Below, piece after piece: positions 4,478-43,900 of a stretch of 45,793 nucleotides of DNA. This stretch comes from Sulfurimonadaceae bacterium (GTDB taxonomy: Bacteria; Campylobacterota; Campylobacteria; Campylobacterales; Sulfurimonadaceae). The position numbers and the translations under genes were made by a program. The stretch spans positions 1 through 45,793 of the forward strand of contig JAVHRU010000043.1 of the NCBI GenBank assembly GCA_036171835.1. The letters are read 5' to 3'. Under the pieces are notes generated by a model that saw nothing but the letters and a program-made list of their open reading frames with translations, was not told the DNA's origin and ran no database searches. Each line of letters begins with the position of its first letter. Within the stretch, counting starts at the first letter, position 1.

Positions 4478-4786
4478 TTAGACAGCAAAAACTCTAAAAA
4501 ACCACATTGAAAAGGTTGAAACAAAGATCGCTAAAGTCAAGTATGGCAGATATTTGTAGATATGCGTAAGTCCAAATATCGGTTTGCCCTCCACAAAAAC
4601 TCCAATCTGAATAGCAGTAATCATAAATGAAACAAGAGTAGCAAAGATAAAGATAAACGGAACAAACAAATACCACTCTACATGTAAGACACCAGAAAGC
4701 AAAATAGGCGCAAGTTTAAAAGATTTGGGTAAAAAGTGGTTTGCATTTTCTAAGTTTGAGATGAGCACTTTAGATATTTTGAACAA
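4478..4786 (-). CDS. hypothetical small membrane protein (start uncertain)
   Basis: ORF fills the gap between lipoprotein and pyrC and has two hydrophobic stretches. TTG start, no clear RBS, family not recognised. Confidence 0.4.
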   Translation of the reverse strand: MFKISKVLISNLENANHFLPKSFKLAPILLSGVLHVEWYLFVPFIFIFATLVSFMITAIQIGVFVEGKPIFGLTHIYKYLPYLTLAIFVSTFSMWFFRVFAV

Positions 4787-4804
4787 ATTGAAGTGAGACG
4801 CCTA

Positions 4805-5773
4805 CTACAAAATATCCCGCACGCTCTGCTTAAACTTGATAGCGACATCTTGTTTTGCGACCTCGTTTCCTTGTGATGACTGACCTATGATATCGACTTT
4901 TTTACTGAGCACTATCTGGTTTTTACTATCTCGCATGTCAATATTTATGGCAGATCTTGCAAGGTTAAATCCGTAAGCGTGAGTAAACACGGTGTTGGAT
5001 GTGATGCTTACATGTAAGTGATATCTATCCTCTTTTTGAGCGATAGCAAATCCTCTATCACTCAAGATGGATTTGAGAGGATCGATGAGATTTTGGCTTT
5101 CACTATCGGCTGTGACACTAAAAGTGATGTTTGATTTTAGAGTGCTAAAACTCTTTTTTAAAGAGCTGATCTCTGAGAGTATATATCCATCATCAAACGA
5201 AGGTCTTAACACTTTAAGCACAATGGATTTATAAAGCAAGTCATCACTGATATATAAAGCATGTTCATAAAAGTAAAACTGTTCTAAAATATTTGCCGAC
5301 TTGCTTGTGGACTCATCATTTTTAAGTAAAGCAATTGTTTTGTCTGTTTCATCTTTGAGGCTGTTAAAGAGTGCCGCTTTGTCTGCTTTTACAAGTACGG
5401 CGTAACTGTTAAAACCGATTTTTTCACTCTCAATAACTTCATAATTACTTAGTCGTATCTCTTTTACATGTAAGGCGATTTTTTGCTCATCGTCTCTTGT
5501 ATAGTTTTCGACTCCATTATAATTATGCACCGTTGTATCCGATGTTAACTTTGATTTTACCGATACACTCAAAGTAGAAGCGATGGAGTTTAACCCATTT
5601 GCAAGAGCATTCTCTTTATCTTTCCCTTCGCCCACACCATAAAGCGATGAAGCATCTGCGGGAGGATTTGTCATCCACACAGGCTGTGGTTTTTGCGCCA
5701 CTTCAACAGTCGGCGGTTTTGAGCATCCAACAAACAAAAGTAAAACTGCGATAAAGATCCAAAAAAGTTTCAT
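4805..5773 (-). CDS. LPP20-family lipoprotein
   Basis: Lipobox LFVG|C. P-x-W followed by LYGVGEG...ALANGLNSIASTLSVSVKS resembles an LPP20 domain. Confidence 0.75.
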   Translation of the reverse strand: MKLFWIFIAVLLLFVGCSKPPTVEVAQKPQPVWMTNPPADASSLYGVGEGKDKENALANGLNSIASTLSVSVKSKLTSDTTVHNYNGVENYTRDDEQKIALHVKEIRLSNYEVIESEKIGFNSYAVLVKADKAALFNSLKDETDKTIALLKNDESTSKSANILEQFYFYEHALYISDDLLYKSIVLKVLRPSFDDGYILSEISSLKKSFSTLKSNITFSVTADSESQNLIDPLKSILSDRGFAIAQKEDRYHLHVSITSNTVFTHAYGFNLARSAINIDMRDSKNQIVLSKKVDIIGQSSQGNEVAKQDVAIKFKQSVRDIL

Positions 5774-39400: not shown

Positions 39401-40980
39401 TTTTCCAAAGTAGTATAATAGATCCCTAGAACCATATCCTGTGAAGGAGTAGCAATCGCTTTTCCTGATGCTGGAAGCAAGATGTTCATAGATGCAAGCA
39501 TCAAAACTTTTGCTTCTGCAATAGCAGCAGTACTTAAGGGAATGTGAACCGCCATTTGATCCCCATCGAAGTCGGCATTGAAAGCCGCACAAACGAGTGG
39601 ATGTAACTGAATCGCTTTTCCATCGATCAATTTAGGGTGAAACGCCTGAATTGAAAGTTTGTGTAGCGTCGGCGCACGATTGAGTAAAATTGGATACCCA
39701 TCAACGATTTCAGCAAGACATTCCCAAACTTCATTTGTTTTTGCTTCAATCATTTTACTTGCAGCTTTGATGGTTGTTGCGTAACCTTTTTCTTCAAGTT
39801 TTGCTATCAAATGCGGTTTAAAAAGCTCAAGCGCCATTTTTTTCGGAAGACCACACTCATCCATTCGTAAAGATGGACCAACAACAATAACAGAACGTCC
39901 AGAAAAGTCAACACGTTTTCCAAGAAGGTTTTGTCTAAAACGTCCTTGTTTCCCTTTAATAATCTCACTTAAAGATTTAAGCGGACGCTTATTGGCACCT
40001 TTTACGGCATTGGCACGGCGGCCATTATCAAAGAGTGCATCGACTGCTTCTTGAAGCATGCGTTTTTCATTTCGCACAATAATCTCAGGAGCTTCGAGCT
40101 CTACTAAGCGTTTAAGACGTTGGTTACGGTTGATAACACGGCGGTATAAATCATTGACATCCGAAACTGCAAACTTTCCGCCATCAAGGCTGACAAGTGG
40201 ACGTAGGTCTGGTGGAAGCACTGGCAAGACTGTTAGCATCATCCATGCAGGGTTATTTCCGCTATTTAAAAATGACTCAATAACTTTAAGACGTTTTGCA
40301 ATTGTTTTGCGTTTTGCTTCAGAGTTTGTAGCCTCAATATCCTCTTTGAGTTTTGAAAAGAGCTCAACAAGATCGATATCATCAAGAATATCGCGGACAA
40401 CTTCTCCACCCATTCTTGCTTTAAATCCTAGCTCGCCAAATCTTTGGACAAGAGTACGGTATTGCTCTTCATTTAAAACATCGTATTTAGCAACTGGTGT
40501 TTTTGCATCTGCATCATAATATGCTTCTCCGCCCTGTTCTACGATGTATGCCTCATAATAAAGTACGCGCTCAAGGTCTTTCATTTTGACACCTAAAAGT
40601 GTACCAATACGAGACGGCAATGAACTTACATACCAAATATGTGCAACTGGAGTTACAAGATCAATGTGTCCCATGCGAACGCGGCGTACTTTGGAGCTTG
40701 CCACTTCAACACCACATTTTTCACACACAACACCCTTGTAACGCATTTTTTTGTATTTACCACATAAACACTCATAATCACGTACAGGACCAAAAACTTT
40801 TGCACAAAACAAACCATCACGCTCTGGTTTAAGCGTACGATAGTTAATTGTTTCAGGTTTTTTTACTTCACCATGACTCCAAGAAAGTATTTTCTCTGGA
40901 GATGCGAGGCGAAACTGCAGCTGTTTAATATCTTTTGGGCGATTATCTTCTGCTACTTCTATTGCTACTAATTTACTCAT
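36460..40980 (-). CDS. rpoC: RNA polymerase beta' subunit
   Basis: Zn-finger CLCGK...CEKCG, NADFDGD and [11 protein letters not shown] at 40980 overlaps the rpoB end. Confidence 0.99.
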
Positions 40981-43900
40981 CGTCTTCAACCTCGTCAAAA
41001 ATCTCTACATCAAGAGCCAATGCTTGTAGCTCTTTTGTCAATACGAACAGTGTTTCTGGTATCCCAGATTCTGGAATCAATTCACCTTTTGTAAGTGCTT
41101 TATATGCACGTACACGACCGTCAACATCATCTGACTTGATAGTTAACATCTCTTTTAGAACTGCAGATGCACCATAAGCTTCAAGAGCCCAGACTTCCAT
41201 CTCTCCAAATCTTTGACCACCAAAGAGTGCTTTACCACCGACTGGTTGTTGTGTTACTAAAGAGTATGGTCCAGTTGAACGAGCGTGAATTTTTTCATCA
41301 ACCAAGTGATGTAGTTTCAAGATATACATGTAACCAACATTTACACGCTCACGCATTTTCTCACCAGTTCTACCATCATGTAATACAGTTTTTCCATCAG
41401 TGCTCATTTTTGCCATTGCAAAAAGTTTCGCGAATTCAGCTTCATTTACACCCTCGAAAATAGGTGTTGCAAATTTAACACCTTTTGCCCAATCACGAGC
41501 ATATTTAAGAAGTTCATCATTACTCATTTTTCCTAAAACTTCTGCACCATTCATAAGTCCTGCTACATCAGATATCTCTATCATTTTTGCACGGATATTT
41601 TCAAGGAAGTCAGCTTGTTTAGAATCAAACTCTGCTTGAATCTGGTGACCAAGTTCACGACCGGCCATACCAAGGTGCATCTCAAGAACCTGTCCAATAT
41701 TCATACGAGATGGAACCCCTAGAGGATTTAAACAAACGTCAACACTACGTCCATCTTCCATATATGGCATATCAACTTCAGGAACGATATTTGAAACGAT
41801 ACCTTTATTTCCGTGACGTCCAGCCATTTTATCACCGACTTTTAGTTGGCGTTTTGTAGCTATATAAATTTTTACATATTTCACGACACCGGTTGGAAGG
41901 ATGTCATCATTTTCAAGAATTCCAAGCTTTTCTTCATGCTCATCACGGAAAATTCTTTTTTGTTTTTGAAAATAGTTTTTCATAACATTATATTGATTTT
42001 GAATCTCATCAGTAAATGACTTCACAATGTTATTCATAGCGAAACGGTTTACATCTTTAAGATCTTCACCATTGATGATATCGCCTTTTTTATAGTCAGT
42101 TCCATTTACACTTATATCTTTACCTAAAGGTTCTTTTGTTAAAAGAGCAGTTATTCTAAAGATCTCTTCTTTATCAATCATCAAAAGACGATCGTAATGT
42201 TCGCGCTCTAAATAGTCACGTTCCTCTTTTTCAAGTTCTAGTGAACGAGGATCTTTATCGTAACCTTTTTTTGTAAAGATTTTAATATCAACAATAACGC
42301 CTTCCATAGATGGAGGACAATACAATGATTTATTTACAACATGGCCAGATTTTTCACCAAAAATTGCGCGAAGTAATCTTTCTTCTGGAGTTGGTTTTAC
42401 TTCACCTTTAGGGCTTACTTTTCCAACTAAGATCATTCCACCTTTGACGTTTGTACCAATTTTTGCGATACCACTTTCATCTAAGTGAGCTAAATCTTCT
42501 TCGCGAACATTTGGAATATCACGAGTGATCTCTTCAACACCATGTTTAAGTTCACGCGCTTCACACTCTTTTTCATAGATATGTACTGAAGTAAAAGCAT
42601 CTTCACGGATCATACGCTCTGAGATAACAATAGCATCCTCGAAGTTATAACCGTTCCATGGCATAAAGGCAACCATAGCATTCACACCAAGAGCAAGTTC
42701 ACCTTGATCCATATTTGGACCATCAGCAATAATATGATCTTTTTCTATAAACTGACCAATTTTAACAACTGGTTTTTGTGAAAATGATGTATTTTGATTC
42801 GTACGAAGATTTTTTTGTAATGGATAATAATCTATAAAGATTCCATCTTCATCTTCGCCTTTGATATAGATATGTTTTGCATCAGCTTTTTCAACTATAC
42901 CTGAACGCTTCGCATAAATACATTCCCAACTGTCACGAGAAACCAGTTTTTCAACACCCGTTCCAACCATTGGAGCTTGTGGACGAATAAGTGGTACTGC
43001 TTGACGTTGCATGTTTGAACCCATAAGCGCGCGGTTAGCATCATCGTGTTCCAAAAATGGGATTAACGATGCAGCAACACCAACAACCATGTGAGAAGAA
43101 AGATCGGCATATTCACACTCTTTAGGAGAACGATAAATAATTTCACCATCTTGACGAACTGCAATTAAATCTTCTATAAACTGACCTTTTGAATCAAGTT
43201 TATTTGAAGCAGCCGCAATCATTTTGCCCTCTTCTTGCGTAGCAGTCAGATAAATAACTTCACTTGTAACTACACCATCTTTTAGAACTTTATATGGTGC
43301 TTCAATAAATCCGTGCTCATTTACTTTAGAGTAAGTTGCAAGCGTATTGATAAGACCAATATTTTGTCCCTCAGGAGTCTCAATCGGACAAATACGACCA
43401 TAATGAGTAGGGTGGACGTCACGCACTTCAAAGCCAGCTCTCTCTTTAACAAGACCGCCCTCTCCAAGTGCAGATAAACGACGTTTGTGCGTTAATTCAG
43501 ACAAAGGATTCGTTTGATCCATAAACTGGGATAATTGTCCGCCGGAGAAAAACTCCATAATAGTCGATGTGATCATCTTAGAGTTAATAAGATCATGAGG
43601 CATAAGCTCACTCATCGGTCCACTCATTGTTGAGAGTTTATCTTTGATAGCTTTTTGCATCTTGATAAGACCATTATGTAATTCGTTGCCTAAAAGTTCA
43701 CCAATAGAACGGATACGACGGTTACCTAAGTGATCTCTATCATCGATATGACCTTGACCATTTTTAACTTTAATGACATATTTAACAGTATTGATAATAT
43801 CTTCATTTGTTAAAACTGTTACATATTCAGGAATATCCATACCTAACTTATGATTCATCTTCATACGACCGACACGAGTCAGGTCATAACGTTCAGGATC

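Follow-up and report, generated by a model that had tools for sequence, protein, structure and literature searches.

Why does one short palindrome lie in so many genes and spacers of a single contig? The 45.8-kb contig analysed here (the window, which is the whole stretch of DNA under study and contig C43 of the source genome, G000) carries 21 copies of the 8-bp palindrome TACATGTA against 0.57 expected, with a maximum of 3 in 100 shuffles. It also holds 12 copies of the 10-mer extension TTACATGTAA and 8 of the 12-mer extension CTTACATGTAAG, the latter against 0.01 expected, and the copies span positions 4679 to 41332. Seventeen of the 21 are genic, encoding LHV in seven cases, TCK or TCS in eight and YM in two; the other 4 of the 21 are intergenic. 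A previous inspection of the window from its letters alone (the sequence-only reading) had counted 8, 12 and 21 copies of CTTACATGTAAG, TTACATGTAA and TACATGTA by hand, which recounting reproduced exactly. Its statement that copies lie in unrelated genes, in differing frames and between genes at 24108, 35253, 36423 and 36442 was confirmed throughout, and the GC content that it had judged by eye at about 36% was measured as 37.4%.

PriA relatives placed the source genome (1.79 Mb in 121 contigs, 86% complete) in an uncultured Sulfurimonadaceae clade beside Sulfurimonas. This genome contains 737 copies of TACATGTA, which ranks first among all 8-mers, and its top 10-mer and top 12-mer are extensions of the same core. 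Among 1746 called genes (the caller overlooked a few that overlap, comEC among them), 612 coding copies were observed compared with 84 in a synonymous-codon shuffle, a 7-fold excess; the excess over a codon-order shuffle was 22-fold, and coding copies of CTTACATGTAAG numbered 179 against 3.4 in the synonymous shuffle. The coding copies were divided 382, 195 and 35 among the three reading frames, and a further 125 copies fell outside called genes; density was higher in spacers than in genes. The motif was found on 114 of the 121 contigs and was evenly spread along 1.05 Mb of one relative (G010) and 700 kb of another (G096). Sites of the matS/parS type number in the tens and occupy one chromosome region only. 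Since TACATGTA is restricted to no domain, it is not such a site, and this option of the sequence-only reading is not supported. The DNA-level, genome-wide tag resembling a highly iterated palindrome (HIP) or a DNA-uptake sequence (DUS), which the same reading had proposed, is upheld by the codon-preserving null, by the contig count and by the DUS-like dialects and terminator-like pairs described below. We conclude that the genome maintains TACATGTA throughout, at the DNA level, as a highly iterated palindrome.

The 8-bp core is an all-or-none unit, and the CTT/AAG flanks around it are a dialect of the source genus. Graded preference in G000 was confined to the flanks, with T at 0.80 in position -1, C at 0.58 in -2, C/G at 0.68 in -3 and AT-rich sequence beyond. 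CTTACATGTAAG is the commonest flank form of the genus and makes up 229 of the 737 copies in G000, whereas it is absent among the 679 copies in G015 and accounts for just 2 of the 1299 in G030. TTTACATGTAAA accounted for 227 of 679 copies in G015 and 730 of 1724 in G414, and TCTACATGTAGA for 119 of 1299 in G030. The dialects were CTT..AAG in the source genus (g1) and in genus g3, TTT..AAA in G015 and G414, and TCT..AGA in G030, with T at -2 in G096. A fixed core with lineage dialects is thus present, as in DUS. The 12-bp unit of the sequence-only reading is real, but only its central 8-mer is invariant; the full 12-mer represents the flank form commonest in this genus. Left and right flanks in G000 varied independently (T/T 470 vs 468.8 expected) and were not matched to lengthen the palindrome (C/C 2 vs 9.9 expected), a pattern that suggests recognition of two half-sites by a protein and not a cruciform.

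We surveyed 250 Sulfurimonadaceae genomes together with an order-wide set comprising family f23 (25 genomes) and 23 further families. The motif was high in all 11 genomes of g1 (99–1154 copies) and in g3 (4/4), g5 (6/6), g6 (4/4) and g20 (1/1), which with g1 make five dense genera. Genus g2, which is likely Sulfurimonas, was divided: 17 of its 104 genomes had at least 200 copies, 10 had 80–199 and 77 had fewer than 70. In the other genera of the family (120 genomes) no count exceeded 58. In f23, which the motif-rich plasmid of S. diekertiae suggests is likely Sulfurospirillaceae, 23 of 25 genomes had 109–1727 copies, whereas 210 genomes from the 23 other families of the order were at background (at most 45). 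Motif-rich Sulfurimonas loci occupied two separate places among motif-poor ones in the PriA tree. The trait is patchy over two families and all-or-none between close relatives. One scan of viral contigs gave 0 matches and another gave 26 without assignable hosts.

To follow the origin of the sites we used as reference the whole chromosome of a motif-poor relative, G012, against which 399 sites of G000 could be aligned. Only 9 of the 399 had any gap, and in alignments of the window genes with relatives the sites appeared by substitutions. Amino-acid identity between the two genomes was 42% at sites and 65% gene-wide, and site density peaked at 0.61/kb in genes 55–65% identical to G012 compared with 0.07/kb in genes more than 85% identical. 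The peptides LHV and TCK were enriched 5.3-fold and 7.8-fold in G000. The sites arise by substitution, placing His or Cys at variable protein positions and sparing the most conserved genes, a build-up at permissive positions of the DUS type. At loci around priA in motif-rich relatives (8–11 per gene, the window counted), distinct site columns numbered 8 in comEC and 9 in priA, and no site was found in dnaB, ispG, pbp, prfB, fusA, flgC or yihY.

Once present, the sites show both persistence and turnover. G000 shared 22 of 114 sites with G096, which belongs to a different genus, and 3 of 395 with G012. Synonymous positions were retained more often inside sites than outside: GTA was kept at 19 of 30 codons inside and 404 of 1009 outside. 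CAT at site positions was also better retained in motif-poor G012 (54/62 vs 0.69), so that the retention argument depends on the counts for GTA and ACA. Across seven same-clade loci the in-site codons were kept in 42 of 42 cases, although these sites are few and non-independent. Such conservation beyond amino-acid constraint is shared with HIPs. No relic signal was seen in G012 (LHV 65 vs 69 expected). As to GC-biased conversion near sites, four-fold GC dropped from 0.30 to 0.25 with distance; since the G012 orthologs dropped likewise and the within-gene slope was flat (p 0.49), this is a gene-class effect.

Among the spacers of the source genome, those between convergent genes were the densest, with 34 sites in 8.2 kb (4.2/kb), followed by tandem spacers (53 in 50 kb, 1.05/kb) and divergent spacers (10 in 24.6 kb, 0.41/kb); with a second gene caller the corresponding densities were 3.2, 1.15 and 0.58 sites/kb. 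Pairs less than 30 bp apart numbered 18 against 8.5 expected and fold as hairpins. Metagenome contigs yielded at least 123 distinct motif pairs. Among those listed, 45 lay in convergent spacers, 32 in tandem spacers, none in divergent spacers and 7 in open reading frames (ORFs), while 39 were at contig edges where the spacer type is unassignable; hairpins with similar loops recurred among the matches listed. DUS and uptake signal sequences (USS) are likewise reported to accumulate at permissive positions, to form inverted terminator pairs and to have dialects (10.1101/2025.10.24.684340, accessible part).

The copies in the window, with the competence-related genes among them, are as follows.

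4679..4686: TACATGTA core in a 102-aa ORF (VLHVE)
5007..5018: CTTACATGTAAG in an LPP20 lipoprotein gene (HLHVS)
5465..5472: TACATGTA core in the LPP20 lipoprotein gene (ALHVK)
6836..6843: TACATGTA core in a phosphoglucomutase-like gene (STCKE)
8255..8262: TACATGTA core in a GGDEF gene (LTCSF)
9034..9041: TACATGTA core in a GGDEF gene (MYMYK)
12850..12857: TACATGTA core in a DUF2201 gene (STCKV)
14928..14939: 12-mer CTTACATGTAAG in a 449-aa ORF (LTCKM), a site also present in 4 same-clade relatives
17453..17460: TACATGTA core in arsB (WLHVL)
20061..21314, minus strand: competence gene comEC, with three 12-mers at 20185, 20263 and 21168
24108..24115: TACATGTA core, intergenic, immediately downstream of priA
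24126..25985, minus strand: priA, with two 12-mers at 24171 and 25683, both encoding LTCK
26011..26484, minus strand: type IV prepilin gene directly upstream of priA, the positional equivalent of C. jejuni Cj0683 and a candidate context only
26555..27037, minus strand: second type IV prepilin gene
31028..31035: TACATGTA core in panC (ALHVS)
35253..35260: TACATGTA core, intergenic, in the rpsG / fusA spacer
36422..36450, minus strand: paired copies at 36423 and, as a 12-mer, at 36442, a hairpin just past the rpoC stop
38358..38365: TACATGTA core in rpoC (TTCKS)
41325..41332: TACATGTA core in rpoB (GYMYI)

At the comEC site coding for LTCK, motif-poor relatives showed VNAV, VNAT, VDAT or VEAT at the aligned position. 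The hairpin past rpoC has a 12-bp stem, a 5-nt loop and a weak U-tract (-15.9 kcal/mol, z -8.4). Competence genes of the source genome include comEC and the prepilins and, presumably, comEA-, dprA-, ctsE- and comFC-like genes, which we assigned by motif or recognition; comEC and the comFC-like gene have 3 copies of the motif each.

The motif has CATG at its centre. G000 encodes an orphan D12 adenine methyltransferase (L001:1495-2490) at a conserved position between dxr-region genes and tsaD. It is 60–61% identical to proteins named 'Modification methylase NlaIII', and these names suggest a specificity for CATG; no solved structure matched it. Just before it, dxr and a downstream hydrolase-like ORF (L001:28-1494) look fused through an N assembly gap alone. 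Strong orthologs (E <1e-80, in hand-picked panels whose related members are not independent) were present in 43 of 60 genomes with at least 200 copies, 3 of 9 intermediate genomes and 18 of 91 background genomes. The 17 motif-rich genomes without the enzyme included five single-contig assemblies; among five enzyme-lacking rich genomes PF01555 was matched in 1 and PF00145 in 4. Both motif-poor f23 genomes have the enzyme, one with an internal stop. Within genus g45, whose members are likewise not independent, the median density was 520/Mb in the 10 genomes with the enzyme and 134/Mb in the 6 without it (Mann-Whitney p 0.005). Since some rich genomes lack it and some background genomes have it, the NlaIII-type enzyme appears neither necessary nor sufficient for the motif, which it tracks loosely. 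The methylation-linked option of the sequence-only reading is weakened by G096, a complete genome (2153 kb, 611 copies) with no match to PF02086, PF01555 or PF00145. The gene itself is not motif-rich (0.45 vs 0.46 per kb). Orphan CATG methylation is reported at 99.1% in S. barnesii, 44.9% in S. denitrificans and 100% in Nitratifractor salsuginis, figures from methylomes and not motif counts (PMC4752239, accessible part). A second D12 methyltransferase of G000 lies in a low-GC island (L002, G000:C28; 31%) with an HNH-like nuclease gene and an insertion-sequence-like transposase, and this island has 0 motif copies in 4.4 kb.

Among known systems (the papers are cited for their accessible parts), HIP1 (GCGATCGC) of cyanobacteria and the alternate HIPs are similar (PMC4390886, PMC5861425, PMC13756078): they too are 8-bp palindromes that number from hundreds to more than 1000 in a genome, lie both within genes and between them and are conserved from one genome to another. 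Their 4-bp centre can likewise be methylated, and many carriers have an orphan adenine methyltransferase, for which a CATG specificity is presumed in the case of TACATGTA. TACATGTA shares with this kind a count far above codon-aware expectation in several frames and between genes. It differs from HIP1 in its sequence, its AT-richness and its host, Sulfurimonadaceae rather than cyanobacteria, and further in strong genus dialects extending to 12 bp, pairs at gene ends, patchiness within one genus and the absence of the methyltransferase from 17 of 60 rich genomes. Neisseriaceae DUS and Pasteurellaceae USS resemble it in density, core plus dialects, permissive positions, inverted terminator pairs (for TACATGTA in G000 and metagenome relatives; 10.1101/2025.10.24.684340, PMC1939737), AT-rich outer flanks and the presence of competence genes; unlike them, TACATGTA is palindromic, without enrichment of one-mismatch forms and, in a crude test, without genome-maintenance bias. 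C. jejuni RAATTY comes from the same order, is a palindrome with a methylatable adenine and goes with a prepilin directly before priA. It is a degenerate 6-bp signal with obligatory methylation, whereas the signal of TACATGTA is 8–12 bp, 7- to 50-fold over-represented and persists without the methyltransferase (PMC10046745). The motif thus seems to act like a HIP or a DUS, with a putative DUS role, yet it is not HIP1. In the literature searched, where subscription papers were mostly uncovered and supplements of HIP surveys may list the octamer, no description of TACATGTA in bacteria was found. DUS dialects are reportedly the subject of a dedicated paper.

Our tentative reading, for which the case is circumstantial, is that TACATGTA serves as a palindromic self-DNA tag for natural transformation. 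A dimeric reader at uptake or early processing would prefer site-bearing DNA; alleles with the site would return to the chromosome at a higher rate, so that sites would accumulate wherever protein constraint allows. Paired copies would then be co-opted as terminator stems. In many lineages, methylation of the adenine in the central CATG would add to the effect without being required. Such a role would have parallels, as HIP1 is reported to raise transformation (10.1101/2024.09.10.611283) and to co-vary with genes for pili and competence, its covariation with its methyltransferases being non-significant (PMC13756078), and uptake in C. jejuni is described as requiring both methylated RAATTY and the pilin encoded before priA, Cj0683 (PMC10046745). 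More tentative still is the broader possibility that TACATGTA represents a third DUS family, the first palindromic one with dialects, read by the Campylobacterota competence pilus and repeatedly gained and lost within one genus, which would unite Neisseria-type DUS, HIP1 and C. jejuni RAATTY in one self-DNA recognition mechanism. What HIPs do has been a standing question for about three decades, for which cyanobacteria give few natural pairs with and without the motif; g2 offers close-relative contrasts (17 rich, 10 intermediate and 77 background genomes) as well as separable dialects. Sulfurospirillum, a cultured carrier genus, has a published CATG methylome, and the reader could be found by proteome profiling and uptake tested by experiment. 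Should the uptake-tag reading hold, constructs supplied with the motif could make Campylobacterota that cycle sulfur or dehalogenate accessible to genetics.

Several observations weigh against the uptake-tag reading. One-mismatch variants of the core in G000 were at 0.36–1.25x of the synonymous null and at 0.7–1.2x of the codon-order shuffle (0.6–0.8x in the motif-poor control), whereas such forms are reported as over-represented for DUS/USS (PMC1939737, accessible part). Genome-maintenance genes held 12 sites against 11.8 expected, in a crude motif-picked set with false positives. Genes absent from G012 had average density (0.35/kb), and 14 copies lie within the 39.9 kb of a plasmid of S. diekertiae (NZ_CP059996.1), where 0.61 would be expected; a clear depletion in mobile or accessory DNA is therefore not seen. 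Any process in which sites build up where they are tolerated would account for the terminator bias and for the scarcity in conserved genes, and close pairs were not in excess in the first 700 kb of G096 (1 vs 1.6 expected). The literature matches listed contained no report of natural transformation in Sulfurospirillum. No reader protein was found: six candidates besides the methyltransferase were examined and none tracks the motif. Two of them bear directly on a pilus reader. The minor pilin, common to G000 and G012, was in 75 of 80 genomes, rich and poor alike, and the priA-adjacent pilin, which occurs in motif-rich and motif-poor relatives alike, showed no diagnostic residues in 65 loci compared by eye.

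The other candidates came from a comparison of gene contents. Subtracting G012 from G000 left 325 of 1746 genes, and 48 ORFs from 20 picked regions were scanned with Pfam; the intersection with motif-rich G096 covered 700 of 2153 kb. With this coverage, and with G000 at 86% completeness, a gene that drives the motif by its presence or absence may yet exist. SbcD (32/80 genomes), a type II secretion system protein (19/40) and an unknown 118-aa protein (16/40) were each found in motif-rich and motif-poor genomes. MutS with a MutS_I domain, common to G000 and G012, occurred in 75 of the 80 panel genomes, motif-rich or not. In G000 its gene (G000:C97:463-3534) encodes 1023 aa with a C-terminal HNH-like motif, which we take to be of the MutS7 type; in G414 and G075, two of the most motif-rich genomes, the matched frame was just 117 and 218 aa long, respectively. 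The type II secretion genes (L255, G000:C98:1400-8229) form a separate, patchy cluster (19 of 40 panel genomes) unrelated to the motif.

The same data bear on other origins. An abundant dimeric protein for chromosome organisation or recombination (nucleoid or Chi-like) might bind the site inside the cell, under weak selection on binding. The palindromic core with graded flanks and independent halves is what a dimer on two half-sites would produce, synonymous positions in sites are retained in relatives, the motif is present on a plasmid, and HIP1 has been given a role of the chromosome-organising type from its periodicity (PMC5861425, accessible part). We nevertheless find such a binder doubtful, as nearest-neighbour spacing is near random (coefficient of variation 0.98 in G000 and 1.37 in G096), a search for 10.5-bp helical phasing between neighbouring copies gave none, no domain is favoured and none of the tested candidate genes tracks the motif. 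A methylation-directed repair ratchet, in which the orphan enzyme marks CATG and a repair nuclease turns near-matches into TACATGTA with no benefit needed, corresponds to Elhai's HIP model (PMC4390886, accessible part). It would agree with the orphan methyltransferase in G000, its enrichment in rich genomes, the density difference in g45, the near-complete CATG methylation of S. barnesii, the all-or-none core and the MutS with an HNH-like motif. We regard it as unlikely: some rich genomes, such as G096, do without the enzyme, some background genomes have it, including both motif-poor ones of f23, MutS is present irrespective of the motif, no strand-skew sawtooth was seen around sites in G000, the near-match shortfall also occurs in the motif-poor control, and a 4-bp methyl mark leaves 12-bp dialects unexplained.

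Relics of mobile or repetitive extragenic palindromic (REP)-like elements, left as 6-bp excision scars at TA or spread by a transposase as hairpin repeats, would agree with two observations: a change from TA to TACATGTA adds 6 bp and keeps the frame, and paired hairpins with similar loops recur among the metagenome matches listed. The gap count largely refutes this, since a Tc1/mariner-type footprint would be a 6-bp insertion at TA against an empty ortholog, and the window-gene alignments show substitutions; moreover, 612 of the 737 copies are coding, nearly all single and with no shared outer sequence, so that we consider an element origin very improbable. Codon or peptide bias, or selection for cruciform-forming palindromes, is hardly credible. 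Two reading frames do hold 577 of the 612 coding copies, but the excess survives both synonymous and codon-order shuffles, spacers are denser than genes, the motif is absent from orthologs of motif-poor kin and the flanks do not extend the palindrome, which refutes it.

Further observations concern neighbouring genes and other genomes. The minus-strand run at 12344-17306 of the window contains the DUF2201 metallopeptidase/VWA gene, a MoxR-like AAA ATPase, the 449-aa ORF of unknown identity, a gene resembling exonuclease X and two small ORFs, also unknown, that have no match in G012. On NZ_CP059996.1, an NlaIII-type methyltransferase gene (1692-2732) has 4 motif copies, and 5 more surround a DNA polymerase IV / LexA-family cassette (20494-21362). 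Within the source genus, the single-contig genome G006 has just 99 copies in 2.3 Mb despite carrying the methyltransferase and the minor pilin, compared with 608 in G010. Other palindromes are in mild excess in motif-poor G012, namely CATCGATG (182 vs 68) and TCACGTGA (70 vs 21.5; third-order Markov). Many Sulfurimonas loci show strong avoidance of GATC (observed/expected down to 0.12), while in others the ratio is about 1.0.

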